IMG/VR virus record: IMGVR_UViG_3300044634_002018
Direction: 5' to 3' (one strand)
DNA: 20,000 bases
DNA from: an uncultured virus (IMG/VR IMGVR_UViG_3300044634_002018)
Lineage: Duplodnaviria > Heunggongvirae > Uroviricota > Caudoviricetes
Shown: one piece after another, positions 3 through 20,000 of the stretch
Position numbering within the stretch: the first letter of the stretch is position 1
How the letters are laid out: each line of letters begins with the position of its first letter
Position numbers and translations under genes: made by a program
Notes under the pieces: model-generated
Told to the model about the DNA's origin: nothing
Database searches by the model: none
The model's input: the letters and a program-made list of their open reading frames with translations, nothing else

Positions 3-3000
3 TTACAAGTTTTAGGTGCTGCTTCTCAACCGGGTGTGACTAAATTAGGCCCTACAATTGCCCCTTCTGGTCCTAATGGTGGATTGATTAGTAACGATAC
101 TTTATACTTAGCACCTGCTGATGACATATACAAAGGGGTTATTAGACTTGCTGGTGACTTAGATTTACCAGCAAATGCTCCTGTTGTCACAGGTTTTTAC
201 GGAAGAGATTTAGTAAGTACAGCACCTACTGATGGACAAGTTTACGCTTGGAACAGTACTCTAAGTAGATGGGTTCCAACTACTCCAAGTGCAGGAGGAC
301 TTACTGACCTTTCAATAGCAAACAGAACAGCAAATAACTTAGATGTAGTATCTTCTACGGGAACAGATGCTACTTTGCCATTTGCTACCAATTTACTTGC
401 AGGTTTACTCACTGGAGGAGATAAGGCAAAACTTGATACTCTTAATAATCAGTCAATAAGTGCTGGAACAGGAATTAGTGTGTTAAGGACTGGACAAAAT
501 TACCAAGTAACAAACACAGGAGATCTTTCCAATACTAATGAATTGCAAACAATTTCTTACAGTGCACCTACTATTACTTTAAGTAATGGTGGTGGGTCTT
601 TTAATATTCCTCAAGGCACAGTTACAAATGTTTCTGCAACTCCTTCCAATGGGATAACTACAACAATTAACAATCCGGGGACTACTCCTGAATTAGTCAT
701 AGGCTTAGGGGCTATTACTCCTACTTCTGTAAATGCTTCTGGGACAATAGCAGGTTCTAATTTAAGCGGAACTAACACAGGAGATAATTCTCCCAACTCT
801 TTATACAGTGGTTTAGTGACTAATCAACCTGCCAATCTTAGTGTAACAGGCACTGCTTCTCCACTCACTCTAAATAGTAGTGATGGCACAGATGTGACTA
901 TATCAGGAGGAGCAGGTGTAGGATTGGTTGGGACTAGTTCATCCATTCAAATAGTAAATACTCTTCCAGAAAATACCACTATTTTAGACGGAACTACTAT
1001 TGATCTTACCCAGACAGGAGGACAAATAACAGCCGAGATTAAACAACAGGGAGCCACAAGTGGACAAGTATTAAGTTGGGATGGTTCAAATTGGTCTCCC
1101 AGTACTCCCAGTTCTGGAGTGACTGATTTATCTGTAAGTAACAGGACTACCACTACACTTGATGTACTTTCAAACACTGGTGCTGATGCTACACTTCCTT
1201 TTGCCACTAATTTACTAGCGGGATTGTTGGTAGCAGATGATAAAACTAAACTAGACAATATCACAGTAACAAGCCCAGTTAACTTAAACACGCTGGCTAC
1301 AAATAGTCACGTTCCAGTCACAATCACAGGGGAAACTTACATAACTCTAGCAGGTCAAGTTCTAACTGCTAACCAGATCAACTCAACTAATATAGCAAAC
1401 GGAACTATTCTTTATGCTGATATAAACCAGAACGGAGCAACAAATAATCAATCATTTAGATGGAATGGATCTGCATGGGTTAATTACACCACTGTAACAA
1501 GTTTAACTGCAACCCCAAGTACAGTAAATGTTGGTTTAGATTTTAATGCTGGTGCAGCAAGTGGCCCTGTAATTCTAGCAGCAAATGCAAGCAGAGCAGG
1601 TGTATTAACTGCTGCTTTGTGGAGTAAACTTGACACCCTTAATAATCAAAGAGTACTAGCAGGAACAGGAATTGGAGTGGTTAAAGTAGGACAAGACTAC
1701 ACAGTAACTAATAATGCCCCTGACCAAACTGTGACTATTACAGGTGCAACAGGTACTTATCCTAACTTTACTTTACCAACTGTTGACGGCTCTGAAACGA
1801 AAGTAAATTCTGGAACCAATATCTCAGTAACAGGTGCTGGTACAATAGCAAGTCCTTACGTGGTAAATAACTCTGCACCAGAATCTACTACTGTAACAGA
1901 TGGAACCACCATTAATCTAACGAAGACTGGTAATGATATTACGGCTGAGTTACAACAACAATCAGCAACTACTGGTCAAGTTCTTAAATGGAATGGAACT
2001 GCATGGATTCCTCAAAACGATAATGTAGGTTCTGTTACTACTAATAATTTATTAGGGACAGATCGAATAGATGTAGTAAATGGTACAGGAGCAATTCTAG
2101 GTGCTTCCCCTGTTACTATTGATGTTATAGAATCAGGATTAAATTCTTCAAGTATTCTCATTACAGATACAGGAGGTTATTTTACCATAGATAATATCAA
2201 TGCTGCTCTCCAGCAGTTAGGTGCTAACAACCATGCACCTTTGACTGTCACAGACGGAACTATAATTGATTTTACTCTCACGGGACAAAACTTAACCGCC
2301 ACGATTTTATCAGGTTCTATAACTAACACAGATTTAGCAGCATCAGGAGCCACTACTAATCAGGTTCTGGCTTTTAACGGAACTAACTGGGTTCCAACAA
2401 CACCTAGTTCTGGTATTACTGACCTTTCAGTTGCCAATAGAACTACAACCACTTTAGATGTTTTATCCAACACAGGCACAGACGCTACAATTCCTGCCGC
2501 TACTAATCTCTTAGCAGGTTTGATGATAAGTGCAGATAAAGCAAAATCAGATTTTATTACTGTTACACAAGCAGTAGATTTAGATGCTATTGAATTAAGT
2601 AGTCACTCACCAGTAACAAAAACAGGAGCAAGTTATCTTAGTCTTTCTGGTCAAGCACTTACTGCTAATCTTATTGGTGCTGGTGATCTATCTAGTATGG
2701 GAGCAGCATCAGATCAGGTTATGAAATGGAATGGTGCCACTTGGATTCCAACTTCCTTGCCAACAGATTCTTTATATAAAGTTAGCACTGTTTCAAGTTT
2801 TTCTAATTCAGCAATTTACAGTAAATGGGAAACAGGTCGAGTCGTTTCAACAGACGGATTCTATACTTCTGGAGATAATGGCGGAGCAAATTACATTATA
2901 GAAGCAAGTGGAACAGTTGATAATATCGTTATATTTGCTGTTGGCTCACGGAGGGCAAGGTTGCTACCAAATACCGATGGGGGCGTTAATTTCTTCCAAT

Positions 3001-6000
3001 TGGGTTGCATCAAAAACGACGCAATTGCAGACGACGAAAGATTGCAAAAAGGGATAGATGTGTTTAACAATATATATTGCTTTGACAACACTGCAAAGTT
3101 TATCTTTTCTAAACCGCTTGAATTAAAAAGTAATACAAAAATACAACTAGGTAGATCCACAACAATTGAAAAGAATAACGATTGGGCTGCCTTGATGTTG
3201 TGGAATGACGGAGAGAATAACAGTCGAGCCCCAGACTCAAATATTGTAATATTGGGTGGAATATGGGATAAACAATCACCTCCGGGAGAAACTTACACTT
3301 TTGGTACATTTAATCCATCTTCTTATAGTGGAGCACTTGTCGATTATGGCTTTTGTTTTACAAACTGCAAGAACTTGCGGGTAGAGAACTTGTCTGTTTT
3401 AAATTGTTCAAAATACGCTATGAGTCTCAATGAACAAGTAAAACCGTATATTCATAACATTTACTTGGATAGTTACTCTGACGGTATTGATTTTATCGGC
3501 AAAAGCGAAGACATTGTAATTGATGGAGTTACAGGGAGAACACACGACGATTTTGTTGGGATTTTCGCTACGGCATGGACAACAAATATTATTGGTACGA
3601 TGGGGAATATTAATAATGTTTCCATAAGCAATATTTATCCAGACGATAACACTACTTCAAATACAATTGTAATAGGTGCTGGTAACAACGGGGGAGTGCC
3701 TTATACCATTAGCAATGTCAATATAACGAATGTATCTAGTAGCAGAACTAATAACCCTACAATAAAAGTTGCTCAGTATGGGGTAGTTGGTGACCCTCTT
3801 ACTGAAACATTAACAGGAGGCGTAGTAAATGGGATGAATATATCTAATATTACTGCTGGTGTCGGCGCAGCGGCTATAATCGAAATGGGTATAGACACGA
3901 TAAAGAATGTAAACATTTCTAATGTTTTGTTTAAAAATAGCCGTCCTTCCGCAGGTATAATCATAAATGACGGGTATCTGGATAATATAAACATATCTAA
4001 TTACGTAGCAGAGACAACAACAAACGGTTTGTATATTGCCGATTCCGTAAATATAAAGAACATCTCATTTTCTGATTGTAACATAACAGTTAATGCTACA
4101 AATAAATCAGCATTTACAATAGAGAATGACACCTGTTCTTTCCTTATTGACAATTGCGTTTTTAGGACTAATGGTACTTCCGACAATGCGGCGTTGTTAC
4201 TAAAGGGAAAAGATAATCGTTACGGGATTTCAAATACAAGATTTTTCAACGCTAATCAGGCAATAAATGACTTTGGTGCAAGAGACACTTTTTTAGTATC
4301 AAATGTAGTATTTAACACGCCCATTGGCATCTATTCTGGTAGTGCCAGTTCTTCTACAATAATAAAAGCAAGTACTTATTCGCACAACAGTACAGATGTC
4401 CCTAAAAAAACCTTTTTGCGCGGTAGTGTAAATTTCCCTGTATTGCAAACAGGGAATGACGAAAATTTATTTGAAGTTACAACATCTATTAGCATTTACG
4501 ATATTCCTATTGAAATGCCAATCGGAACGACTTATCGTATTACAAATAGCAACACTGTTCCGATTGTAATAGCACTGAGTGGTTCAGAAGTCTTCGCGTC
4601 AGGATCGAATAATTTTTTTTTGCCTTCAAATGCAACAGTTACGGCAAAAAGGTTTTCTAATACTCTATGGCGAATAGTAGGCTCTGGGACAAGCGAGAAC
4701 TTTTTACCAACTGGGGTCTCAGGCCAAACTCTTAGTTATGATGCAAGTAATCGAATTATTGCTAACAATCAATTGGAAAATACTTCTGGCAGCCTTAAAA
4801 CAAATGTGCGCCTGACCACGCAATCTGGCATTACAGCTAATAATATGGGTGAAAATATTATTATAACCTCAGACGGAACCACTGGGAATAATGGTGTTTT
4901 ATACGGAACCGTTGGCGGTGCTTTCTCTTTATCTAATCAGGCCAAAACGAGAGAGCTTTTAAATACGTCCACAGGTTGGAATTTTATAGGGAATGTAGGT
5001 CATGGTATATTGGCCCCCTTAGCCCCTATTCATATAAAATCTTCATCCAACCCAAATGCTATAATAGAGTTCGATGGTTTTGGTACCATTGCCTCTCCGG
5101 GATTACCCGCTCTTAAATTCAAGGCAGGTACATTCGATGGAGCAAGGATTGAGACAGACTTTAGATTCAATTCTGGAGTCAACTACACCTCTTTGCGGTT
5201 TTGGGTCAACAACTCGTCTGGAACCCTACAAAATAAATTCACGATGAATGGGCAAAATGGATGGTTTGGTATTGGAGTAATTGACCCTACGGCAGCATTA
5301 GATGTCATTGGTGATGTTAAGTCTGATTCATGGGTATCAGCAGGTAACAGGCTTTTATTCGCAAACTCAACGGGTGTTGCAAACGAAACCTCAATAGATC
5401 CAGCCCACGTATTAGTTATTGGCTCTGCTTACGGAGGTGATGTGTTTGGCACTTATGATAATTTGCAATTAGATACTGCTGTTGTTGAAACTATTAATAT
5501 TGCAGATGATGCTATTACACAGGATAAGATAGCAAATGACGCTGTTGGCTCTGCTCAAATTGCTAACTCAGCAGTAGGTAGTTCTGAGATTATAAACGGT
5601 AGTGTTGGAGCATTAGACCTTGCTGCGCAGTCTGCAACAGTTGGACAAGTTTTAACTTATGCAGGAGCAGGTATAGGTTGGACACCAGCAACACCTTCTG
5701 GTGGCGGGGGTGGCGGTTCATTACCAACTGGTACAAGCACTCAGACTTTAAGATATGACGCAACTAATACCATAGTTGCTACAAGTCAAATTCAAGCAGA
5801 TACTACTGTTGGTATAGGTGGAGCAGCAGCATCTGATGAACTTACGATTTACGGAACAACTAAATCAATAGGATCGCTCAAAATAGAAGGCACTGGATTA
5901 AACTCTGGAGTTTGGGTTACTAATACTACTCCAATCACGGGAATCACTTGGTATATGTTACAAGATAATAGTGGATTTTTATACTTTCAAGAATCAGCGG

Positions 6001-6401
6001 GGAATACTGTACCATTGATTTTAAGAGGTAATCTAGTTGAAACTACAAACACTTTGGTAAAAGACGCTATCTATAAAGACATAACAACCGTAACGGGCAT
6101 TACAACATATCAAGTTACTGGATTAGAAAGTTTAATTAAACTTACAACAGGTATAGACCTTACAACAATAAATCTCCCAGAGATTGTTGCAAGTGCGCCG
6201 AGTTTTAATCAAGTTACACCGGGTTTTATACTTACTTTAGTAGTCAAGTCTCCAAATGCTGTAATAATTAACAGAGCAGGTGCCGATACTTTTATTCAGC
6301 ATGCTGCTACTGGATCATACACTTCATTTCCAATCTCTGCCAATACTGTTGCAATTTTAGAGTTAATTGCTTTAGAAGATAACCTTTGGTCAATAAAATA
6401 A
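3..6401 (+). CDS. Large phage tail fibre/tailspike protein (5'-truncated) with repetitive shaft, central beta-helix depolymerase-like domain and C-terminal fibre repeats
   Basis: Frame is open back to the window edge (LQVLGAASQPGVTKLG...), so GTG at 36 is probably internal. T/S/G/N-rich, with repeated GQVLxWNGxxWxP motifs, a tailspike-type TDGFYTSGDNGGA motif, N/I-rich beta-helix rungs containing SDGIDF...HDD, GxVGIG-type fibre motifs and IADDAITQDKIANDAVGSAQI repeats. Lies upstream of the lysis genes. Confidence 0.85.
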   Translation, partial: LQVLGAASQPGVTKLGPTIAPSGPNGGLISNDTLYLAPADDIYKGVIRLAGDLDLPANAPVVTGFYGRDLVSTAPTDGQVYAWNSTLSRWVPTTPSAGGLTDLSIANRTANNLDVVSSTGTDATLPFATNLLAGLLTGGDKAKLDTLNNQSISAGTGISVLRTGQNYQVTNTGDLSNTNELQTISYSAPTITLSNGGGSFNIPQGTVTNVSATPSNGITTTINNPGTTPELVIGLGAITPTSVNASGTIAGSNLSGTNTGDNSPNSLYSGLVTNQPANLSVTGTASPLTLNSSDGTDVTISGGAGVGLVGTSSSIQIVNTLPENTTILDGTTIDLTQTGGQITAEIKQQGATSGQVLSWDGSNWSPSTPSSGVTDLSVSNRTTTTLDVLSNTGADATLPFATNLLAGLLVADDKTKLDNITVTSPVNLNTLATNSHVPVTITGETYITLAGQVLTANQINSTNIANGTILYADINQNGATNNQSFRWNGSAWVNYTTVTSLTATPSTVNVGLDFNAGAASGPVILAANASRAGVLTAALWSKLDTLNNQRVLAGTGIGVVKVGQDYTVTNNAPDQTVTITGATGTYPNFTLPTVDGSETKVNSGTNISVTGAGTIASPYVVNNSAPESTTVTDGTTINLTKTGNDITAELQQQSATTGQVLKWNGTAWIPQNDNVGSVTTNNLLGTDRIDVVNGTGAILGASPVTIDVIESGLNSSSILITDTGGYFTIDNINAALQQLGANNHAPLTVTDGTIIDFTLTGQNLTATILSGSITNTDLAASGATTNQVLAFNGTNWVPTTPSSGITDLSVANRTTTTLDVLSNTGTDATIPAATNLLAGLMISADKAKSDFITVTQAVDLDAIELSSHSPVTKTGASYLSLSGQALTANLIGAGDLSSMGAASDQVMKWNGATWIPTSLPTDSLYKVSTVSSFSNSAIYSKWETGRVVSTDGFYTSGDNGGANYIIEASGTVDNIVIFAVGSRRARLLPNTDGGVNFFQLGCIKNDAIADDERLQKGIDVFNNIYCFDNTAKFIFSKPLELKSNTKIQLGRSTTIEKNNDWAALMLWNDGENNSRAPDSNIVILGGIWDKQSPPGETYTFGTFNPSSYSGALVDYGFCFTNCKNLRVENLSVLNCSKYAMSLNEQVKPYIHNIYLDSYSDGIDFIGKSEDIVIDGVTGRTHDDFVGIFATAWTTNIIGTMGNINNVSISNIYPDDNTTSNTIVIGAGNNGGVPYTISNVNITNVSSSRTNNPTIKVAQYGVVGDPLTETLTGGVVNGMNISNITAGVGAAAIIEMGIDTIKNVNISNVLFKNSRPSAGIIINDGYLDNINISNYVAETTTNGLYIADSVNIKNISFSDCNITVNATNKSAFTIENDTCSFLIDNCVFRTNGTSDNAALLLKGKDNRYGISNTRFFNANQAINDFGARDTFLVSNVVFNTPIGIYSGSASSSTIIKASTYSHNSTDVPKKTFLRGSVNFPVLQTGNDENLFEVTTSISIYDIPIEMPIGTTYRITNSNTVPIVIALSGSEVFASGSNNFFLPSNATVTAKRFSNTLWRIVGSGTSENFLPTGVSGQTLSYDASNRIIANNQLENTSGSLKTNVRLTTQSGITANNMGENIIITSDGTTGNNGVLYGTVGGAFSLSNQAKTRELLNTSTGWNFIGNVGHGILAPLAPIHIKSSSNPNAIIEFDGFGTIASPGLPALKFKAGTFDGARIETDFRFNSGVNYTSLRFWVNNSSGTLQNKFTMNGQNGWFGIGVIDPTAALDVIGDVKSDSWVSAGNRLLFANSTGVANETSIDPAHVLVIGSAYGGDVFGTYDNLQLDTAVVETINIADDAITQDKIANDAVGSAQIANSAVGSSEIINGSVGALDLAAQSATVGQVLTYAGAGIGWTPATPSGGGGGGSLPTGTSTQTLRYDATNTIVATSQIQADTTVGIGGAAASDELTIYGTTKSIGSLKIEGTGLNSGVWVTNTTPITGITWYMLQDNSGFLYFQESAGNTVPLILRGNLVETTNTLVKDAIYKDITTVTGITTYQVTGLESLIKLTTGIDLTTINLPEIVASAPSFNQVTPGFILTLVVKSPNAVIINRAGADTFIQHAATGSYTSFPISANTVAILELIALEDNLWSIK
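297..2552 (+). repeat. Three dispersed 141-bp (47-aa) repeats in the fibre shaft at 297-437, 1116-1256 and 2412-2552
   Basis: GLTDLSIANRTANNLDVVSSTGTDATLPFATNLLAGLLTGGDKAKLD / GVTDLSVSNRTTTTLDVLSNTGADATLPFATNLLAGLLVADDKTKLD / GITDLSVANRTTTTLDVLSNTGTDATIPAATNLLAGLMISADKAKSD, each preceded by a WxPxTPS linker. Confidence 0.95.
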
Positions 6402-6407
6402 CATAAT

Positions 6408-7331
6408 ATGAAATACTTAATTTTAATACTTAGTTTAATAACTACAAATTTATTAGGGCAATCAGTTGCTCCGGGAGTACCTGAGACAACTTATGAAGAA
6501 CAACAATTTACTTCTCCTGTTGCTAATTTTTCAGTAACAGTCCCTTCTTGGGCAAAAGAAGTCACTATTTATGTAGTAGGTGCAGGAGGAGGTGGAGGTT
6601 CTGGAAGACAAGGTTTAACTTCTACTGTTCGTTGTGGCGGTGGAGGTGGTGCAGGTGGAAACCTTTCTACTGGAACATTCACCCTTTCTAATTTAGGAAA
6701 CCCCGGGTTCTTATACGTTAATGTTGGAACAGGTGGTACTGGTGGAGCAGCGCAAGCAACACCTTCTACAAATGGTACTGCTGGCGGAAATGGTGGTGCT
6801 TCATCAGTTGGAACAACACCAAATTCTTTAAACTTATTTATAAATGCAAATGGTGGGTTTGGAGGTAATGGTGGAACTGCTACAAATGGAACTGCTGGAA
6901 CTGCTAGTCCTTTGGGTCAGTTTATAGGGTCTGCTGGTGGAGCAGCAAGCACAACAGGTGCAATTGGTTCTTCTGGTGCAACTGCTGGAACTGGTGCTGG
7001 CGGTGGAGGTGGTGCAGGGAGTGGTATCACATCCACAAATGCTTTTAGTGCATCAGGAGCAGGTGGGTCTGCTAATGCAGGTCAGCAAGCAGGTGGGGCT
7101 AGTGCAACAGCAGGAGCAGGTGCAGATGGTGGAGTTTCTCCAAGCACAGGTGCTTACTACGCTGGTGCTGGTGCTGGTGGTGGAAGTTCTTCTGCCACAA
7201 CTGCTGGCAGAGGTGGTGATGCTCTTAGAGGTGGAGGTGGCGGAGGTGGTGCTGCTTCTTTGAATGGATTTAATTCTGGTAGAGGAGGTAATGGAGGAAA
7301 TGGATATGTATTAATAATTTTTAGAAAATAA
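6408..7331 (+). CDS. Glycine-rich tail-associated protein with an N-terminal signal-peptide-like segment
   Basis: VTIYVVGAGGGGGSG...GGGGGAGG...VNVGTGGTGG...GGNGGNGYVLI is typical of phage Gly-rich (polyglycine) domains. N-terminus is MKYLILILSLITTNLLG-Q. Confidence 0.8.
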   Translation: MKYLILILSLITTNLLGQSVAPGVPETTYEEQQFTSPVANFSVTVPSWAKEVTIYVVGAGGGGGSGRQGLTSTVRCGGGGGAGGNLSTGTFTLSNLGNPGFLYVNVGTGGTGGAAQATPSTNGTAGGNGGASSVGTTPNSLNLFINANGGFGGNGGTATNGTAGTASPLGQFIGSAGGAASTTGAIGSSGATAGTGAGGGGGAGSGITSTNAFSASGAGGSANAGQQAGGASATAGAGADGGVSPSTGAYYAGAGAGGGSSSATTAGRGGDALRGGGGGGGAASLNGFNSGRGGNGGNGYVLIIFRK

Positions 7332-7332
7332 T

Positions 7333-7827
7333 ATGAGAACTATAATTCATAAAAAGGGAAATCATGCCTGTAATCTTTATTTACCTAAGGTTTGGTTTAG
7401 AAAACCAGAAATAGTAATAAACTTTGAGTTTGATTCAAGTGCGGAATATTATCACAAAAATGGTTATGCAGGTATTAATAAACTAGGTGGGGTAGATTTT
7501 TCACCCGGTACTCCTGCAAACAAAGGCTGGTCTTACATGATAGGTTGGTCTTGGGACACAGATAAAATAGGAATCTACTGGTATGTAAACAACCCAAAAG
7601 GAGATCATTTATCTGGGTTGCTCCAATCTTTGCCTTTAATTAAAGAAAATAATAAATTAATGTGTCGGGGACAAGCAAAAATTAACTTTGAAGGAAATAA
7701 GGCTTTATTTAGTAGTAAAAATAATTATACCTTTGCAGATGGTAAAACAACCAATTTTTGCAGAGAAATAAGACCTTGGTTTGGAGGTATTTATCCTGCT
7801 CCACACGACATAAAAATAATTATATGA
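7333..7827 (+). CDS. Hypothetical aromatic-rich beta protein, possibly a minimal lectin/PL14-like jelly-roll
   Basis: 164-aa ORF starting 1 nt after the previous stop. Motifs NKLGG, SYMIGWSW, IYWYV and PWFGG...PHD. Confidence 0.7.
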   Translation: MRTIIHKKGNHACNLYLPKVWFRKPEIVINFEFDSSAEYYHKNGYAGINKLGGVDFSPGTPANKGWSYMIGWSWDTDKIGIYWYVNNPKGDHLSGLLQSLPLIKENNKLMCRGQAKINFEGNKALFSSKNNYTFADGKTTNFCREIRPWFGGIYPAPHDIKIII

Positions 7828-8180
7828 CTAGAATCGTTGAATTTATAGACAGCATCCTGTCTTTCCTTGTCCCTTATAAAGATGCTATAATGGGAGGTGC
7901 AGTATATTTTATATACTCGCATGTGTATTTAAAAAGAGAAACTGTGTCCAATTTCTTAGAATTTTTAATGGGGGTGATATTCTCGGTGTATGCAAGCCCT
8001 GAAATTGTAGAGCATTTTTCTTTTCTTAACATTTCCTTTGTTTCATTTATATGCGGTTTAATGGGAATGACTATAATGAGGCTTGCTTTAGAGTTTCCTT
8101 GGAAAGAAACACTTAACAAGATTGTTTCTGAGATTTTAGATACCTTTGCAAAAAGTAACAACAACAATAAAGAAAAATAA
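7824..8180 (+). CDS. Putative holin (about 3 hydrophobic segments, charged C-terminus)
   Basis: ATG at 7824 forms an ATGA overlap with the upstream stop and is preferred over the track start at 7758. Hydrophobic stretches AIMGGAVYFIYSHVYL, FLEFLMGVIFSVYA and FSFLNISFVSFICGLMGMTIM. Located upstream of the amidase. Confidence 0.65.
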   Translation: MTRIVEFIDSILSFLVPYKDAIMGGAVYFIYSHVYLKRETVSNFLEFLMGVIFSVYASPEIVEHFSFLNISFVSFICGLMGMTIMRLALEFPWKETLNKIVSEILDTFAKSNNNNKEK

Positions 8181-8182
8181 TT

Positions 8183-8437
8183 ATGGAAAATGTGCAAATA
8201 TTTCTTGCTTTTTATCTTGACAAACTCAAGATAAGCAACCCTATTACTTATGTGGTAGTTCAAACATTAATTTGTGGGACTTTACTTTTGTTTAGCACTG
8301 ACGTAATTAACATCAATCAAAGTGTGGACAACACTATTATTATTATCTTAGGAAGTATAGTGGCAGGGATTTCACCAAGGACTTCTCAAAAAGCAGCCGA
8401 GTACCAGTTTCCTGAAATAGATCAATCTAACAAATGA
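8183..8437 (+). CDS. Putative holin/antiholin (2 TM)
   Basis: 84 aa with ITYVVVQTLICGTLLLF and TIIIILGSIVAGI segments. ATGA overlap with the endolysin. Confidence 0.6.
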   Translation: MENVQIFLAFYLDKLKISNPITYVVVQTLICGTLLLFSTDVININQSVDNTIIIILGSIVAGISPRTSQKAAEYQFPEIDQSNK

Positions 8438-9102
8438 AAAGTGAAGAAGTAATCCTCGCAAATTACGGGTTTGCACTCACTAATTACAATGGAATAGAAG
8501 TTTATTCAAACAATAAACTCACTAAGCACTTCTTTAATGAGGCGGGTAGAAAATCCAAAATAGTAATTCATCACACTGCTGGCGGGTTTGAAGGGGATCT
8601 TATTACTCTTTTATCTAGCACAGTAAGTGTTGCTTTTCTTATTTCTCCTCAAGGAAAAATAGTCATGCTGCACCATCCTAGATTTTGGGCGTGGCATCTG
8701 GGTAAAGGTGCTTTAGGAGGTAATGAGGCTCAATCTCGTATAAGTATAGGAATAGAACTGAGCAATTGGGGATTTCTAGTACGTAAAGGAGATATTCTTT
8801 TCAATTACTTAGGAAGACCACATTGTAAAATGACTGACACACATTTATACGAGGAAAGCAAACCTTGGAAAAGATTTGGCAATGTAAATGTTAGATACTT
8901 CTCAAAGTACACTGAGGCTCAATATGTAAGCCTTAAATTGATTAAGAACAAACTTTGTGCCCTTTACGCAATCCCTAATGTAAGATACACTAAAGGATAT
9001 TCTAATGAAGTCATTAATTTCAAAGGCATCACAACTCATACAGATTTTAGGCTGAACAAGTTTGACTTGTCTCCTATTTTTGATTGGGACAAAATTATGT
9101 AA
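8434..9102 (+). CDS. Endolysin, N-acetylmuramoyl-L-alanine amidase (Amidase_2 family)
   Basis: KIVIHHTAG, FLISPQGKI, AWHLG, SIGIEL, YTEAQY, ITTHTD and KFD follow the Zn-amidase motif order. Confidence 0.9.
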   Translation: MKSEEVILANYGFALTNYNGIEVYSNNKLTKHFFNEAGRKSKIVIHHTAGGFEGDLITLLSSTVSVAFLISPQGKIVMLHHPRFWAWHLGKGALGGNEAQSRISIGIELSNWGFLVRKGDILFNYLGRPHCKMTDTHLYEESKPWKRFGNVNVRYFSKYTEAQYVSLKLIKNKLCALYAIPNVRYTKGYSNEVINFKGITTHTDFRLNKFDLSPIFDWDKIM

Positions 9103-9117
9103 ACCAACAGGTATAAT

Positions 9118-9819
9118 ATGAAATACGCAATTCTTATGGGTCTGAACAAAATAGACCCTGAATATTATGGAACTGATGGAGCCCTGAGAGGTTGTATCAA
9201 TGATGTAAACACTTGGATAAATCTGATAAAACCGGATGAATTTCAAGTCCTTTTGAACGAAGAAGCAACTCCTGAAAATTTCCTAGGGTGTTTACACTCG
9301 GTTAAAGTAAAAGCAGTTGAGGGAGACACCATTTACATTATGTATTCAGGTCATGGAACTCAAGTCCCCTCAACCTCGAAATCTGAGAAGGATGAATTGG
9401 ATGAAGCATTTTGCTTTTACAATCGGATTTTCTTGGACAAGAATTTTAACAACAACTTGGCCACTATCAAAAAAGGTATCAAAGTTGTGGGAATTTTTGA
9501 CTGTTGCTTTAGTGGTGGAGTCCATAGAAATGCTTTAGGAATTAGAAAATCCATTAAAGCCACTTTACCTATTCCGGCTCCTATTCCTATTAAATCTAGG
9601 ATTTTGAAGTGTAGTTTTCTTTCCATAAACGCATCTGCTGAGTCACAACCAGCCTTAGACGGTGAGGTAAATGGATTGTTTACGGAGACTATGTTTAAGA
9701 CTTACACAGGGCATCCTTTGCTTAGTTGGACCAAAGCAGCCTCTGAATTGGTCACACAACAAAAAATTAACTTTAAATCCTATGGTACTAAGTTTGATTG
9801 GAGTACCTTTGTACTGTAA
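9118..9819 (+). CDS. Metacaspase / caspase-family cysteine protease (peptidase C14)
   Basis: KYAILMGLN, LRGCINDV, LLNEEAT, YSGHGTQ (catalytic His, about 9346-9357), DEAF, FDCCFSG (catalytic Cys, about 9499-9507) and ASAESQ...NGLFT (p10-like region). Confidence 0.9.
   Translation: MKYAILMGLNKIDPEYYGTDGALRGCINDVNTWINLIKPDEFQVLLNEEATPENFLGCLHSVKVKAVEGDTIYIMYSGHGTQVPSTSKSEKDELDEAFCFYNRIFLDKNFNNNLATIKKGIKVVGIFDCCFSGGVHRNALGIRKSIKATLPIPAPIPIKSRILKCSFLSINASAESQPALDGEVNGLFTETMFKTYTGHPLLSWTKAASELVTQQKINFKSYGTKFDWSTFVL
9804..9813 (+). promoter_or_regulatory. Candidate Bacteroidota-type -7 promoter element (TAnnTTTG) upstream of the 9840 gene
   Basis: TACCTTTGTA about 27 nt before the ATG at 9840. No clear -33 TTG at canonical spacing. 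Confidence 0.4.
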
Positions 9820-9839
9820 TTTTTAAATTTTACACAATT

Positions 9840-10214
9840 ATGGAAAAATTTGGTATTATTCAGACAAGCGAGATGGTAACATTTGCTTGTAGGCTTGTAA
9901 GTGCAGGTACATCTGCCTTGGAAGATGGTAAAGTAAACATGTTTGATGCAGCCTTTGTCCTATCCCCCCTAAAGGTAGCAGGTGCAGCCATTAAAGATGC
10001 AAACCTTATTCCTAGTGAACTAGGTGATCTTTCCGCAGCAGAAGTTGCAGAAGTTTCAGCACTCATCCAGAGTGAACTAGAACTTCGTAATGACCTTGCA
10101 GAAGAACTCACACTTGAGTTTGTTAAATTGGCTGGTCAGTTGGCTGTGACTTTGCGTAAAGTACGTGAGGCACGTTTAAAACCAACAGACCCAGTATTAA
10201 ATCCTGATGCGTAA
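9840..10214 (+). CDS. Hypothetical alpha-helical protein (124 aa), last gene of the late/lysis block
   Basis: ATG at 9840 after an AT-rich leader (the track start at 9798 is a TTG overlapping the caspase). Ala/Leu/Glu-rich amphipathic helices and a basic C-terminal RKVREARLK. Confidence 0.75.
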   Translation: MEKFGIIQTSEMVTFACRLVSAGTSALEDGKVNMFDAAFVLSPLKVAGAAIKDANLIPSELGDLSAAEVAEVSALIQSELELRNDLAEELTLEFVKLAGQLAVTLRKVREARLKPTDPVLNPDA

Positions 10215-10239
10215 GGTTTAGTCGTCAGGAAATTTTTTT
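10202..10239 (+). terminator. Candidate intrinsic terminator 1 overlapping the stop of the 9840 gene
   Basis: TCCTGATG...CGTCAGGA stem (8 bp, one G:U) followed by AATTTTTTT. Confidence 0.45.
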
Positions 10240-10245
10240 AATCCT

Positions 10246-10285
10246 AGAAAGGGAGTGCCTGTATAAGACACCCCCTTTCTTTTTT
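10246..10285. terminator. Intrinsic terminator 2 between convergent gene blocks, possibly bidirectional
   Basis: AGAAAGGGAGTGCCT-GTATA-AGACACCCCCTTTCT followed by a T-run. The 15-bp stem has two mismatches on + that become G:U pairs on -. Confidence 0.75.
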
Positions 10286-10709
10286 AACCTTCTACCATTG
10301 GGATTATTTCCGCTTCTGGTACAACCTCTGGTACAACCTCTGGTGCTGGCATTTCACTCAAATACTTAAATTCACTAGGATCAATCCCAAAAACAGGCAT
10401 TAACCTTTTAATGTCTGCTTCATCACGAATCAAAATAAAAAAATGGGTTTGAGTGGATTTGTTGACAAATTTAATCTCAGCCTCACCTTTACGGTTCATT
10501 TTGATTCTTCCCTCAGAATCCACTGTACCGTTAACAGGATAAGATTTAAAACCTTGCTCTGTTGGTAAATCTGTAAGAATTTGGAGAAATTTCACAAACC
10601 CTTCATCATTTTTAACAGGGGTTACTTGTGCCACATTTTCTAAATTGAGAGCACAAATAGTTTCTTGTCCATTATTTTCTTGGACAAATTTGTAATTGAT
10701 AAACTTCAT
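10284..10709 (-). CDS. Hypothetical phage protein with a Pro/Glu/Val-rich tail
   Basis: 141-aa ORF with an ATGA overlap with the upstream gene. Confidence 0.75.
   Translation of the reverse strand: MKFINYKFVQENNGQETICALNLENVAQVTPVKNDEGFVKFLQILTDLPTEQGFKSYPVNGTVDSEGRIKMNRKGEAEIKFVNKSTQTHFFILIRDEADIKRLMPVFGIDPSEFKYLSEMPAPEVVPEVVPEAEIIPMVEG
10315..10344. repeat. 12-bp tandem repeat (TCTGGTACAACC x2.5) encoding PEVV-PEVV-PE
   Basis: Direct inspection. Confidence 0.85.
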
Positions 10710-10960
10710 ATAAATGTAATTAAATTAAGTTCTAATAAAAATTTGTAAACTTCTTGGTTTACTTTTCTTCCTTGCATTCCTGTTTCAGTTTTTTTCTTCA
10801 AGTAGTAATACTCTTCTCCTTTTAGAATAACTTCTGGTAATTGATTAAACCTAGGTTCATACACAGAATCAAATGGCGTGTCTAACAAAAAGGAAAACCC
10901 ATCACAAGGATACTGCTTTCTAGCCTTGGTTATTACTGTAAGACTTTTAACTATTTGCAT
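10706..10960 (-). CDS. Hypothetical phage protein
   Basis: 84-aa ORF containing KARKQYPCD, fits the tight gene packing. Confidence 0.7.
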   Translation of the reverse strand: MQIVKSLTVITKARKQYPCDGFSFLLDTPFDSVYEPRFNQLPEVILKGEEYYYLKKKTETGMQGRKVNQEVYKFLLELNLITFI

Positions 10961-10974
10961 CTTTTAGTATTGAT

Positions 10975-11319
10975 TTATATTTTATCATCCAATAATCTGT
11001 TTAATCTACTGATAAATTCTTTTTCCAAAACTGTGAGATTTATTAGTCTCTTTTTCCAATCTCCGTTACAAAGGTATGCAAAAATTATGGTTCCTTTGTG
11101 ACCTTCGTATTTGTATGCAGGAAAAATAAAATCCAACCAAACCTTTTTGTATTTTCTAACTCGGTATTTTCTCCAAGTAAAAGATTCAATAGGGTCAATG
11201 CCAGTTTCTGCTTTTGCTGCCAAATACATAGTAAGCAAGTCTGGTTTGGACATTAGCACAAAAATGTTAAAAATCTGTTCCATGTCTGCGTAGTCTTTAA
11301 ATTTTAAGTTTTTTTCCAT
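10975..11319 (-). CDS. Hypothetical phage protein
   Basis: 114-aa ORF, fits the tight gene packing. Confidence 0.7.
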   Translation of the reverse strand: MEKNLKFKDYADMEQIFNIFVLMSKPDLLTMYLAAKAETGIDPIESFTWRKYRVRKYKKVWLDFIFPAYKYEGHKGTIIFAYLCNGDWKKRLINLTVLEKEFISRLNRLLDDKI

Positions 11320-11720
11320 ATATTTTTATATGTTACAAATATTCCCAAAAGGTAAACATCTGCTAGGTTGAAAATGACCCACTTTGTCCCGAAGAGTTGA
11401 ATAGGTATCATGTCTGTTACACTTCCGTAAATTGCTCGTTCAGTTAAGTTAGACAAAGCCCCTATAATCCATAGCCAATGCCAGAACAAATGCTCTTTGT
11501 CTACTTTGACAATAATACAAAACACTGCTGCCAGTACTATTGCTATAAAGTAGTGAAGAGTTATTGGGAGAGCATGTTGACAAGGATAAAGAAAACCTAC
11601 CCATTCTTCTGGTTGTTTTCTTGCCCACATTTTTAAGAGAAAATCTGCATTTGCCAAAGCAAACAGTAAAAAAAATCCCTTCTTACCTATTGTTAACGTA
11701 GATATGAGCCGTTGTATCAT
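11304..11720 (-). CDS. lspA: Divergent lipoprotein signal peptidase II (peptidase A8) homolog
   Basis: ADFLLKMWA resembles DQxxK of TM1. IGALSNLTER resembles GAxGNxxDR. GSVTDMI resembles GxVVDFI with the catalytic Asp. WVIFNLADV resembles FNxAD with the second catalytic Asp. Four hydrophobic segments. Confidence 0.8.
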   Translation of the reverse strand: MIQRLISTLTIGKKGFFLLFALANADFLLKMWARKQPEEWVGFLYPCQHALPITLHYFIAIVLAAVFCIIVKVDKEHLFWHWLWIIGALSNLTERAIYGSVTDMIPIQLFGTKWVIFNLADVYLLGIFVTYKNIWKKT

Positions 11721-11895
11721 CGAATTTTAAGTTTAAAGGTTCTGGATTTTCTGGAATTTCTATATCTCTCTCTGGGTCCCATACTGCTATTTTCTTTTGT
11801 ACATTTCTCATAGCCACCCATTCTTCGTCAGTAATATGATCTGGCTTTTCAAGAACTAAGTGTGGGTGTTGTCTGTGATGGTGTCTTTCAAACAT
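11683..11895 (-). CDS. Hypothetical small protein with a His-rich N-terminus
   Basis: 70-aa ORF filling the space between neighbours, starting MFERHHHRQHPH. Confidence 0.55.
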   Translation of the reverse strand: MFERHHHRQHPHLVLEKPDHITDEEWVAMRNVQKKIAVWDPERDIEIPENPEPLNLKFDDTTAHIYVNNR

Positions 11896-12326
11896 GTTAT
11901 TAAATTTAGTGAGTAAAGTAATCCTGATTCTAATGCTTGTTGATGTGTTGGAAACATTCCATATTCTTCGGGGGAATCAAGCCAATTTACTTTCTTTGCT
12001 CTTGCTTCAATTCGTTTCATAAGCAGTAGGTTGTGCCCTCTAAAATCATTATGTTTGCTTGAAATCCACATTTCATACCAATCTTTTTCTAATTGAGGAT
12101 GACTATGAAAATTTACAGTTATGTGAATATTGTGTACTTCACGTAACCATTTTTGAAGTAAGAACTGACTAGGAGCGTAAGCAACTCTCTCATAACTCAT
12201 TGAACCTCTCATACCTTTAGTTGGGTTTAAAGTTCCAGTTTGGTCATACCAATGTTTAGTCTTCCAGTCAAAACCTTTTTCAGCAGCAAGTTTTGCTACT
12301 TCAAACCCTGTAATATCTTCTTTCAT
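11856..12326 (-). CDS. Hypothetical phage protein (FExAKLAxEKG family, paralog 1)
   Basis: FEVAKLAAEKGF...PSQFLLQKWLREVHNIHI...ALESGLLYSLNLI. Confidence 0.8.
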   Translation of the reverse strand: MKEDITGFEVAKLAAEKGFDWKTKHWYDQTGTLNPTKGMRGSMSYERVAYAPSQFLLQKWLREVHNIHITVNFHSHPQLEKDWYEMWISSKHNDFRGHNLLLMKRIEARAKKVNWLDSPEEYGMFPTHQQALESGLLYSLNLITCLKDTITDNTHT

Positions 12327-12652
12327 ATTAATTCTAATGATTTAAATAGTGCTTTTTCTAATGCTATTTCGTAAGAAGCACAACCATGATTATCCGTGTA
12401 AGTAATGCGTTTTGCATTTAAGTACTTATTTTTTTCATTGCCTTGGAAATAAAGTATTTCATAATGATAATCAAAATCTTCATCAAATTCTCCCGTGTAC
12501 AATATTGCTATGTGAATGTCATGTTCACATCTTAACCACCTTTGTAGAACACTCTGAATTGGGACACTGACTAGAGTGCCCCCTATATACTCAAACTTAT
12601 AACCTTTTTCTTCTGCTAGTTTTGCAGTTTCAAATTTAATAGTTTCTTCCAT
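12323..12652 (-). CDS. Hypothetical phage protein (FExAKLAxEKG family, paralog 2)
   Basis: FETAKLAEEKGY...PIQSVLQRWLRCEHDIHI...ALEKALFKSLELI, with an ATGA overlap. Confidence 0.8.
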   Translation of the reverse strand: MEETIKFETAKLAEEKGYKFEYIGGTLVSVPIQSVLQRWLRCEHDIHIAILYTGEFDEDFDYHYEILYFQGNEKNKYLNAKRITYTDNHGCASYEIALEKALFKSLELI

Positions 12653-12861
12653 TATTGTATAGTTATAGTATTTGAATCTTTACTGATTTTAATTTCAGTA
12701 CACCAACCTCTCAAAACAAGTTTTGGTTGAGCAATATTGTATTTAGTATGACAAGCAACTAAACAGTTTACTATTTTACAAGGGTAACATTTTCCTCTAA
12801 AATGCACTGTCATACTTTCTGTTTGCTTTCGATAATGAAAGAAAAACCTGTATTGTTTCAT
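12652..12861 (-). CDS. Hypothetical small basic protein
   Basis: 69-aa ORF with a TAATG overlap with the next gene. Confidence 0.7.
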   Translation of the reverse strand: MKQYRFFFHYRKQTESMTVHFRGKCYPCKIVNCLVACHTKYNIAQPKLVLRGWCTEIKISKDSNTITIQ

Positions 12862-13324
12862 CAGTGGGTTTTATAAAATTCCAAAAATCCCAACCAAATG
12901 GTTCTATGGGTTGCCTTTTAACCATGCAAACATGTAAACGTGTAATCTCTTCTTCCGCTATTTCATTGGAATAAATCCGTAAAGTTTTTCCATCGTTTGT
13001 TACCCCATTTCTAGTTAAAGTAATCCCAGTCCCAAACTGCCCATTAGTAATAATTCCAGAACTATAACCAATACTAAGTCCTCTGTCTTTGAATATTTCA
13101 CATTTTACTGGTAGCCAAGTAGTGTCTTTGTTTACACAAAAATAAGAAGTCAATACTCCTTCTTTATTGTAAACCGGGTAGCATTCTTTGGTTACTTTTC
13201 CATATTGGGTTACTGTATCTGGAACCAGTTCGTTGCAATAAGCCTCGTACTTAATGATGTAGTCTTTAATAGACTGTGTATTTGCTGTAAAAGCAAATAA
13301 TAAAAATAATGCTGTTAATCTCAT
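12797..13324 (-). CDS. Hypothetical exported protein with a signal peptide
   Basis: ATG at 13324 forms an ATGA overlap with the upstream stop and is preferred over the track start at 13465. N-terminus MRLTALFLLFAFTANT-QS. Several Cys that could form disulfides. Confidence 0.7.
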   Translation of the reverse strand: MRLTALFLLFAFTANTQSIKDYIIKYEAYCNELVPDTVTQYGKVTKECYPVYNKEGVLTSYFCVNKDTTWLPVKCEIFKDRGLSIGYSSGIITNGQFGTGITLTRNGVTNDGKTLRIYSNEIAEEEITRLHVCMVKRQPIEPFGWDFWNFIKPTDETIQVFLSLSKANRKYDSAF

Positions 13325-14322
13325 TTTCCTGTGTAGTTTAAATATTTTAAATATGAATTTCTGAACCCAAATAATTTGTTTTCTTGCGAGCCAAGCATCC
13401 AATCTCTGATTGTCCATTTTGCAGTTATGTACTCTTTTTCTGAAAGACCTTTTGATTCCACACACAGCCCATCTCCAAAATGATCTTCTAATTCTGTAAA
13501 TTCCCCCAACCAGTCTTTAAGTTCTGCAATTGTGTAATAGTCTCCTTCTTCTTTTACCCTTCTCTCTCCATCACTTTCTAAGCATTGTAAAAAGATTTTA
13601 TCAGGTATTACAAGGTCAGCCCCACAGTCTATTAGTTTGTTAATAGCAGCATAACCGTTTTTTGCAAATCCGTATTTTTTACAGTACTTTACATATTCAG
13701 TTATATTATCTGCCACTATTTTAACCTTGGATATTTTTTTAGAATTTTCATAATGTTCTAAAGCCAAATCCATGTTTTTAGAAAACCCTTGTCTCCTGTA
13801 ATAATCTTCAAATCCTTCTTCTTCCGTCATAGCGTACTGCTCTTTGTACCATTTTACCTGTTTAGCACAATTCCAAACTAATCCTTCAAGATTTTCTCCC
13901 ACTCCTACATTTCTTGTTATAAAGGAATCCAAGCCTACTCGAATGTAATCTACACCTGTTTTTGCCAATTCTAAAAAGGCTTCTTGGCTTCCTACATTAC
14001 CTGCCATTAAAATCATGTTATTTCCATGAATTTCTTTCATTTCTAATATAGTGGAGTGTAAAATCCTTGAAGCACCATTTTTCCAGTCTATGCAAATTTT
14101 AATAGATTGGTCTAAAGGTTCGGAATAATTTTCTATTAATTCTAATGGAGTTCTTAAAAGAAAATGATCTCTGTTGTCATACAACCCATCATTAGGTAAT
14201 ATGATGTTAATTCCCAACTGCTCAAACAGTGGGATATTTTTTTGGTTCAAAACTAAAGGTGTGGCTAGTAAAGGACAAGTAAAAGCCACTGTGTCTTCTT
14301 CATTAATTTTTGCGTGTTTCAT
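13321..14322 (-). CDS. IMP dehydrogenase / GMP reductase-fold protein with a degenerate active site
   Basis: ICIDWKNG resembles xxIDxAHG. LMAGNVGSQEAFLELAKTGVDYIRVG resembles IAGNVATxEGAxxLxxAGADxVKVG. ITRNVGVG resembles TTRxVxGVG. IVAD...INKLIDCGADLV resembles IIADGG...IxKALAxGADxV. The catalytic GxGPGSIC loop is replaced by GLDSFI. Confidence 0.75.
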   Translation of the reverse strand: MKHAKINEEDTVAFTCPLLATPLVLNQKNIPLFEQLGINIILPNDGLYDNRDHFLLRTPLELIENYSEPLDQSIKICIDWKNGASRILHSTILEMKEIHGNNMILMAGNVGSQEAFLELAKTGVDYIRVGLDSFITRNVGVGENLEGLVWNCAKQVKWYKEQYAMTEEEGFEDYYRRQGFSKNMDLALEHYENSKKISKVKIVADNITEYVKYCKKYGFAKNGYAAINKLIDCGADLVIPDKIFLQCLESDGERRVKEEGDYYTIAELKDWLGEFTELEDHFGDGLCVESKGLSEKEYITAKWTIRDWMLGSQENKLFGFRNSYLKYLNYTGK

Positions 14323-19359: not shown

Positions 19360-19635
19360 TTAATCTTCTGTTAAGTTTTTTAAATATTCCCCTACTTCTT
19401 TTTTACCTTCTTTTACTCCTTTTTCTACTCCTAACTCAAATGCTTGTTCCGCCAATATTCTTAAAACGTCTTTTAAAGTAGTTTTATCGTTATTACGTAT
19501 GCGAATTACTTGCCAATGACCTGAAAAATAAAATTCAACTTTTGCGTAAAGACCTTCTGTTTGATTAATATCTTTCTCTGTAAACAGAAACTCACATTCT
19601 ATAAGTTGATCTTGTAATTTTTTTGTTATGTTCAT
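19360..19635 (-). CDS. Hypothetical phage protein
   Basis: 91 aa with an ATGA overlap. Confidence 0.7.
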   Translation of the reverse strand: MNITKKLQDQLIECEFLFTEKDINQTEGLYAKVEFYFSGHWQVIRIRNNDKTTLKDVLRILAEQAFELGVEKGVKEGKKEVGEYLKNLTED

Positions 19636-20000
19636 GTGTGAAATAATTTATAGCATTGGACTTCTGTAATGAGTCCCTCTTGCACTAATAAGAAAATAAC
19701 CTTTTTCCAATCTACATAAGGTCTTTCAAGTGCAGGTCTTACAAGAGGTGTTCCTAGCGCGGAATCATCTATCATAAAATTTGCGTATGACTTAGGGGAA
19801 CTCGTCCAAGAAAGTTGAGTTGGATTAGTTTGAATCCCATATAAAGGTATGTCATGTTTCTTGAACCAGTTTACTGCTTCTGTGAGGTAATTACCTTTAG
19901 GAGTGTCACTCCTCATTGTAAAAAGAATAAGTTGATGCCCATTCTCTACTAAGGTTTTAAGAACTGGTACTGCTCCTATTTCTTCTCCTATTTCTGGAAA
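19632..20000 (-). CDS. HAD-superfamily hydrolase/phosphatase (5'-truncated by the window edge)
   Basis: Frame is open to the window end: FPEIGEEIGAVPVLKTLVENGHQLILFTMRS (motif II Thr), SPK (motif III Lys), MIDD (motif IV). The DxDGT motif I would lie outside the window. Confidence 0.8.
   Translation of the reverse strand, partial: FPEIGEEIGAVPVLKTLVENGHQLILFTMRSDTPKGNYLTEAVNWFKKHDIPLYGIQTNPTQLSWTSSPKSYANFMIDDSALGTPLVRPALERPYVDWKKVIFLLVQEGLITEVQCYKLFHT

Follow-up and report, generated by a model that had tools for sequence, protein, structure and literature searches.

Does a tailed phage bring a lipoprotein signal peptidase of its own, and how much of the enzyme can be dispensed with if it does? 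The question is raised by a 20,000-nucleotide stretch of DNA (the window) from the IMG/VR record IMGVR_UViG_3300044634_002018, an uncultured virus of the Caudoviricetes, in which an open reading frame (ORF) of 138 amino acids (aa) resembles signal peptidase II, LspA. LspA is an aspartyl protease that cleaves diacylated prolipoproteins; it is essential in many bacteria and a validated antibiotic target, and the surface of Bacteroidota is dominated by lipoproteins. The reading favoured here, with a probability of roughly 0.55 on sequence comparison and a structural model, is that the protein, called mini-LspA below, would be a streamlined and catalytically competent accessory LspA of a freshwater phage whose host is probably a member of the Bacteroidota.

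Family, fold and catalytic residues

The gene and the positions that identify it are the following.

11304..11720, minus strand: mini-LspA ORF, Peptidase_A8 homolog, 138 aa (ORF list, Pfam PF01252, fold match to LspA only)
11631..11645, minus strand: Asp26...Lys30 of helix 1 (in the 17-row alignment K30 is invariant and D26 nearly so)
11562..11621, minus strand: shortened helix 1-helix 2 loop (residues 34-53), a beta-cradle remnant without the extracellular loop (gap of about 20 columns; model strand 47-49 only)
11436..11453, minus strand: S90-N91-L-T-E94-R95, the clade's SNxxER form of GNxxDR
11412..11414, minus strand: codon of Asp103, first catalytic Asp (VTD; phmmer alignment to 6ryo_A and residue list of PMC6952399)
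11358..11360, minus strand: codon of Asp121, second catalytic Asp (FNLAD; same basis)

That this gene encodes a phage-borne minimal LspA homolog had been proposed in a sequence-only reading of the window, and the identity was borne out by the comparison of profile, fold and individual residues. The hidden Markov model of Pfam PF01252 (Peptidase_A8) gave 44.9 bits against a gathering score of 25 (E-value, E, 1.8e-11), the alignment being limited to residues 56-125, which correspond to profile positions 57-131 of 142; seven of the eight members of the clade alignment matched the same profile at E <= 0.01. The sole relative found by phmmer among solved structures was the LspA of Staphylococcus aureus, 6ryo_A (E 8.2e-5). 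Each of the 12 listed NCBIfam LspA models scored mini-LspA under its own cut-off, and no match was found in PHROGs at E <= 1 or in PADLOC.

An AlphaFold2 model built from the 8-row alignment (predicted local distance difference test 77.4, predicted template-modelling score 0.67) contains four long helices. Its first outer loop has a short strand at 47-49, and a small sheet lies between helices 3 and 4. Foldseek returned five hits at E <= 0.01, all of them LspA chains (6ryp, 6ryo_A and 5dir A, B and C; template-modelling (TM) scores 0.62-0.69), with the next match at E 1.6, and in VIA-align the LspA entries reached Z-scores (Z) of 13.7, 13.5 and 12.3 across 131-134 residues with the next entry at 4.0. 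The Atlas model of the protein showed a TM score of 0.77 against a signal peptidase II cluster. Both the profile and the fold, on which the earlier identification had been staked, point to LspA and, in the case of the fold, to LspA structures only.

Residues were mapped through the phmmer alignment to 6ryo_A and a 17-row alignment that included eight canonical LspAs. Fourteen highly conserved residues of S. aureus LspA are listed in an excerpt of PMC6952399; 11 are identical in mini-LspA, one is conservatively changed and two are without counterpart.

S. aureus Asp21: Asp26 of mini-LspA
S. aureus Lys25: Lys30
S. aureus Asn52: no counterpart
S. aureus Gly54: no counterpart
S. aureus Gly102: Gly87
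S. aureus Asn106: Asn91
S. aureus Asp109: Glu94
S. aureus Arg110: Arg95
S. aureus Val116: Val101
S. aureus Asp118 (catalytic): Asp103
S. aureus Phe132: Phe117
S. aureus Asn133: Asn118
S. aureus Ala135: Ala120
S. aureus Asp136 (catalytic): Asp121

The motifs named earlier were all located in the 138-aa translation (YPCQHALP at 45-52, GALSNLTER at 87-95, VTD at 101-103 and FNLAD at 117-121), and Glu does stand in place of the Asp of the "DR" motif, as E94. The two catalytic Asp residues claimed from the letters are likewise present, since Asp103 and Asp121 align with Asp118 and Asp136 of S. aureus, and their spacing of 18 residues is identical in the two proteins. Among the S. aureus mutants covered by the excerpt of PMC6952399, R110A, D118N and D136N had 0% activity and N133A had 3%; all four of these positions, at which mutation is lethal to the activity, are retained in mini-LspA.

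The main departure from the canonical enzyme lies between helices 1 and 2. The NxGxAFS strand of the cradle had been described as replaced by YPCQHALP, and the canonical stretch is indeed absent; however, the strand and the loop that follows it correspond to a gap of about 20 columns against the eight canonical rows, so that the change is a deletion and not a substitution. Where the cradle would be, the clade members carry W-x-G-x-L-Y-P-x-x-(N/H)-x-x-P. The loop Asn53-Lys63 of S. aureus LspA, with Trp57, is described in the excerpted parts of PMC6952399 as a flexible lid over the pocket, which clamps globomycin and myxovirescin and may give substrate promiscuity. What is missing from mini-LspA, as judged from the alignment, is the lid and one helper Asn, and the residues essential to the enzyme are kept.

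Compared with the LspAs of S. aureus (6RYO/6RYP) and Pseudomonas aeruginosa (5DIR), mini-LspA has the same four-helix fold (Z 12.3-13.7) and shares with them the Asp dyad at its 18-residue spacing, the Asp/Lys pair of helix 1, the Asn and Arg of GNxxDR, the Val-x-Asp strand and FNxAD. It is 19-22% identical to these enzymes, and its segment joining helix 1 to helix 2 is shorter by about 20 residues; Asn52/Gly54 and the 11-residue extracellular loop with Trp57, which they possess, have no equivalent in it, and their Asp109 is Glu. Unlike them, it is phage-encoded, optional and below the lspA equivalog cut-off. By profile, modelled fold and dyad, mini-LspA is a real though divergent member of the A8 superfamily, and by the unmet cut-off, the absence of Asn-x-Gly and loop, and the Glu at the Asp109 position it is not an equivalog of the housekeeping LspA.

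The mini-LspA clade and its look-alikes

When 1.84 billion representatives were scanned exhaustively with HMMER, 52 proteins were obtained at E <= 1e-3, just two of which reached E <= 1e-10. Six short relatives aligned over their full length (P0003-P0007 and P0012), and with the query, P0054 and P0002, an 80% identical homolog that retains every motif, they constitute a clade of nine members. Besides the cradle replacement given above, SNxxE(R) and VTDMIPIP are common to the clade; Glu94 is found in 9/9 members, whereas Asp occupies that position in 8/8 canonical rows. Twenty positions, including VTDMIP and NxAD, are invariant among the six catalytically intact members.

Maximum-likelihood analysis of 44 rows placed the nine members on one side of a branch of length 1.69 supported by a Shimodaira-Hasegawa-like approximate likelihood ratio of 100, apart from all 35 canonical rows, a set which does not contain the short cellular LspAs L001 and L002. 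P0001 and P0056 (other records of the query protein), P0010 and P0030 (long or duplicated), the cluster duplicates P0057-P0063 and all rows of <110 or >210 aa were left out of the tree. The clade is rare: its clusters have 1-5 members each, and the contigs, those of the query set aside, measure 1.5-24 kb. Scans of viral, metagenome and genome contigs for other members recovered no relative, one contig scan giving just two bacterial short LspAs, L001 and L002. On the sequences compared, the nine-member clade is small and previously undescribed.

Short LspAs of the candidate-phyla type are the nearest look-alikes of mini-LspA by language-model features. They are similar in length (L001 and L002, 138-148 aa; Atlas clusters, 128-146 aa) and in the SNxxxR spelling, but L001 and L002 keep a cradle strand of the N-x-x-AFS type and the Asp of DR, and lie in a bacterial context beside a 120-aa gene. 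In both contigs (L001, 160-975; L002, 9389-10168) the LspAs, of 148 and 138 aa respectively, come immediately after this gene, and the pairing is kept; from its sequence, we take the 120-aa gene to be of the DksA/TraR zinc-finger type.

Additional lspA paralogs, full-length and cellular, are carried by antibiotic producers such as Myxococcus xanthus (myxovirescin/TA). The extra gene of M. xanthus is likewise a second, non-housekeeping one that serves a special purpose; mini-LspA differs in being trimmed and phage-borne.

With a canonical LspA (P0022) as query, 19 of 50,697 GenBank phage records matched. The LspAs of these "phage" records belong to the same Pfam family as mini-LspA. Two of the records are flagged UNVERIFIED and show a bacterial chromosomal gene order around lspA (L003, MT835478.1 85985-98455; L004, OM373555.1 56509-68967), one with ileS-lspA-rluD-pyr genes and the other with sepF-ylmH-lspA-rluD. 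Three further lspA annotations are on one Salmonella contig and two "MD-2021a" contigs, both of the latter beside fkpB. All five inspected records of the 19 look like host DNA rather than phage genes. A full-text literature search found no description of a phage-encoded LspA, though papers outside the searched set would be missed; the matches deal with phage lipoproteins and their signal peptidase II cleavage sites. Given this search, the lack of a PHROGs match and the host-like character of the five GenBank hits inspected out of 19, a true phage-encoded LspA appears undescribed.

An optional gene in a freshwater phage

The gene overlaps both of its neighbours, and the overlaps coincide with the borders of a segment that is absent from some variants of this phage.

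11683..11895, minus strand: upstream 70-aa gene, the final 38 nucleotides (nt) of which also code for the first 13 codons of mini-LspA
11320..11682, minus strand: 363-nt present/absent segment, codons 14-133 of mini-LspA (X18 joint and protein record P0066)
10975..11319, minus strand: downstream 114-aa gene, the first 16 nt of which also code for the last mini-LspA codons and the stop

Contigs from four runs were compared over 10200-12700. A 93-nt contig of X18 (depth 2, 30 letters on its shorter side) joins 11319 and 11683 through a single T and skips 363 nt; the stop codon of the upstream gene ends at 11683, and the ATG of the downstream gene begins at 11319. Taken singly, this joint is weak evidence for a gene-less variant. 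It predicts that the ATG at 11720 reads 13 codons directly into the downstream gene, and the protein record P0066 (127 aa, from a 2,885-base contig of an independent assembly) begins with the 13 residues MIQRLISTLTIGK and continues with the downstream protein. P0066 has exactly the fusion predicted by the joint, and the gene-less variant is thus shown both by a contig joint and by an independent protein record. Mini-LspA is a presence/absence cassette, an accessory gene whose boundaries lie at gene borders, and this polymorphism is newly found here.

A second contig of X18 (614 nt, depth 3.6) carries mini-LspA and differs at 17 positions, all within 11162-11278 of the downstream gene (about 15% divergence, 8/17 changes altering the amino acid), with zero differences in 11279-11712. 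Since the differences stop at 11279, a mosaic or recombination boundary is indicated at the 3' end of mini-LspA. The upstream gene occurs in eight variants, 89-97% identical to the window copy.

The first codon of the 138-codon ORF is ATG, used by some gene callers (P0056, 11 contigs, the longest of 131,429 bases); others use an alternative TTG at codon 22, giving 117 aa (P0001, 10 contigs). The TTG start would put just four residues ahead of the conserved Asp of helix 1, whereas 10-13 hydrophobic residues precede that Asp in other clade members and the model helix spans 13-35. On account of this hydrophobic lead and the model helix we favour the 138-aa form as the correct one. A promoter scan gave only weak consensus matches near the gene, and a terminator scan there found none. 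An opposite-strand gene at the locus was rejected, as the ORFs there have just 45-52 aa, and so was a recoded genetic code, as table 11 leaves all genes open. The guanine-cytosine (GC) content of mini-LspA (0.353; 0.302 at third codon positions) is in line with that of neighbouring genes, which indicates that it is not a recent arrival.

By PHROGs and Pfam, the plus-strand half of the window holds a giant frame, a Gly-rich tail-like protein, a holin-like ORF, an Amidase_2 endolysin and a caspase-like Peptidase_C14; from 10284 on, the minus strand is a compact block of small, mostly unknown ORFs that includes mini-LspA. A search of the window for tRNA genes found none, and no cellular housekeeping gene was present among the 32 window ORFs scanned. 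Other genes of the window are as follows.

3-6401, plus strand: open frame of >2,100 aa running off the window start; no PHROG match, sole Pfam match DUF6087 at 20.3 bits, below the cut-off of 27.1
6408-7331, plus strand: Gly-rich protein matching minor-tail PHROGs, with a signal-peptide-like N-terminus and then Gln (…NLLG/QS)
7758..9102, plus strand: lysis genes, namely a holin-like ORF, a small membrane ORF and the Amidase_2 endolysin (PHROGs and Pfam)
9118-9819, plus strand: caspase-like Peptidase_C14 directly after the endolysin (Pfam 54.3 bits; PADLOC "caspase", E 1e-9)
11856-12326 and 12323-12652, minus strand: adjacent genes matching the N-terminal and C-terminal parts, respectively, of phrog_12005
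12797-13324, minus strand: signal-peptide-like N-terminus and then Gln (…ANT/QS), no lipobox Cys
13321-14322, minus strand: IMPDH/GMP-reductase-like protein (Pfam 31.6 bits; phrog_9582 "dehydrogenase")
19632-19916, minus strand: short ORF matching the phosphoheptose isomerase PHROG phrog_1238

As it precedes the Gly-rich tail-like gene, the frame at 3-6401 presumably encodes a giant protein of the tail or a fibre. The genes at 13321-14322 and 19632-19916 are of a metabolic type and belong to the small-gene block. A secretion signal on the tail-like protein is odd, and a caspase-type protease inside a phage lysis cassette is unusual.

That the host belongs to the Bacteroidota had been a guess from the letters alone, and it gains indirect support from several features. 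Bacteroidota largely lack the Shine-Dalgarno signal, and a match of even four bases to it was found at just 2/33 starts in the window. The GenBank phage relatives of gene 11856-12326 are only Cellulophaga phage phi4:1 records (4/4), and the 11 records matching the Amidase_2 gene include three of Tenacibaculum phage, but also Alphaproteobacteria phages. Gln after a hydrophobic stretch, as in 6408-7331 and 12797-13324, agrees with the Q-rule that applies to signal peptidase I substrates of Bacteroidetes, as given in an excerpt of PMC5837995. The scarce Shine-Dalgarno matches, the Q-rule signals and the Cellulophaga and Tenacibaculum phage relatives together indicate a host that is probably of the phylum Bacteroidota.

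Among the runs listed, 24 contain the region 9000-14000; each is labelled as lake water or freshwater metagenome, and none is an RNA run. Ten are possible sources, and nine others, from nine studies, contain 0.43-0.95 of the sampled words. The carrier is a recurrent freshwater phage. Related phages sought through a 333-aa neighbour were not found, and GenBank phages gave no megablast match with the whole window and no tblastn match with mini-LspA, P0006, P0054 or P0007.

Proposed function and its alternatives

Mini-LspA would be a four-helix protein of the inner membrane with the Asp103/Asp121 dyad towards the outer leaflet, backed by Asn91, Arg95 and Asn118, and it would most likely remove signal peptides from diacylglyceryl-modified prolipoproteins during infection, presumably to the benefit of the phage. 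The retention of the dyad, Arg95, Asn91 and Asn118, together with a clade-specific replacement loop in which Pro and Gly are invariant, speaks for a functioning peptidase whose pocket is open and has no lid. With the loop and Asn-x-Gly lost, the pocket would be expected to be more open, the substrate range narrower or shifted, and the contacts to globomycin and myxovirescin weaker.

Several observations weigh against this assignment. The equivalents of Asn52 and Gly54 and the whole extracellular loop are missing, and in S. aureus the substitutions N52A and G54P leave 7% and 0% activity, according to the excerpt of PMC6952399. The TIGR00077 lspA equivalog model gives 32.5 bits and its cut-off of 73.95 is unmet. 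Two clade members outside the window with intact ORFs depart from the catalytic pattern: P0004 has Cys and Ser at both catalytic Asp positions, and P0007 has Asn at the first, with the Arg also lost. The start and stop of the gene both lie within flanking genes, the start being ambiguous between ATG and TTG, and the existence of a variant without it makes the gene non-essential. The 20-kb window holds no credible lipobox protein, 58-111 kb of the phage lying outside it, and hence no phage substrate is in view. A strict lipobox scan gave one hit, a 41-aa ORF lying within the minus-strand block but on the other strand, which was treated as spurious; a relaxed signal-peptide scan gave seven rows from five ORFs, none with a lipobox Cys at -1/+1.

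The loss of the Asn52/Gly54 region and of the loop could also mean that the protein is a pseudo-enzyme or substrate trap, which would bind prolipoproteins or signal peptides, or occupy the LspA niche, without efficient cleavage and would delay or re-route the maturation of host surface lipoproteins, as in superinfection exclusion or weakening of the envelope. The location of the gene in a block of small, accessory-type genes and the two clade members that lack a catalytic Asp would suit such a role; catalysis is not retained throughout the clade, and P0004 and P0007 are possible natural pseudo-enzymes by their residues. This explanation is nevertheless unlikely for mini-LspA itself, which keeps both Asp residues, as do six others of the nine; five of those six share with it Arg95, Asn118 and VTDMIP as invariant features, which would be hard to explain without catalysis. 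Moreover, N52Q and G54A retain 71% and 113% activity in the S. aureus data excerpted from PMC6952399, so there is no strict requirement for the side chains that are lost. The sequence-only reading had suggested that the enzyme could mature phage lipoproteins, have an altered specificity or act as a dominant negative that remodels the host surface; a purely dominant-negative action fits poorly with the retention of Asp103, Asp121, Arg95 and Asn118.

The absence of a credible lipoprotein candidate from the window would also be accounted for by an active aspartyl peptidase with a changed substrate, for instance phage proteins bearing ordinary signal peptides, and the products of 6408-7331 and 12797-13324 do have signal-like N-termini without a lipobox Cys. 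The trimmed part of the cradle is described in the excerpt of PMC6952399 as accommodating the residues past the cleavage site, with the lipid modelled beneath it. A changed substrate is improbable to a similar extent, since mini-LspA keeps the pocket residues through which canonical LspA contacts the lipobox mimic, the Gln after both hydrophobic stretches fits signal peptidase I under the Q-rule (PMC5837995, in excerpt), and the window covers only 20 kb, the contig being as long as 131 kb at most.

It is rather less probable that the gene is a decaying hitch-hiker, a captured fragment of a host gene without current function and on its way to being lost. Its presence/absence polymorphism, its borrowed start and stop, the strong shortening of the protein and the long branch in the tree would be expected of such a fragment, but the exact protein is intact on 21 contig records (in two gene-call forms) and its 80% homolog on seven, W-x-G-x-L-Y-P and SNxxER are invariant motifs peculiar to the clade, and the composition matches the phage. 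The gene-bearing form is also the commoner, with the exact downstream gene on 14 contigs and the fused form on one. A cellular origin, with the window as a bacterial chromosomal island and mini-LspA as a cellular paralog, can almost be set aside: although only 20 kb is in view while the longest contig with the gene has 131 kb, and the nearest language-model look-alikes are short candidate-phyla LspAs (scores <0.9, a lead only), housekeeping genes are missing from the 32 ORFs, tail-like, holin-like and amidase genes accompany the compact small-gene block, the neighbour's GenBank phage relatives are Cellulophaga phages only, and mini-LspA had no match in plasmids or, by pattern scans, in species-representative genomes.

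Beyond the streamlined accessory LspA preferred here, it is tempting to speculate, quite tentatively, that the nine-member clade represents a lid-less type of signal peptidase II which phages use on a few chosen lipoproteins and thereby re-tune the Bacteroidota surface. Without the promiscuity loop, its targets would be phage-made lipoproteins or host surface lipoproteins such as receptors, the purpose being, for example, superinfection exclusion or receptor masking; the enzymes would be naturally insensitive to LspA inhibitors that grip the loop, and the members without Asp would have turned into pure binders.

A natural catalytic core without Asn52/Gly54 and the loop shows which parts of LspA may be dispensable for catalysis and which may serve just inhibitor binding and the range of substrates. 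Variants that carry mini-LspA co-exist with others that lack it, and they provide a natural comparison for the effect of the gene. If it is active, mini-LspA adds lipoprotein maturation to the host processes that phages bring along, and this matters in Bacteroidota in particular, where lipoproteins dominate the surface.

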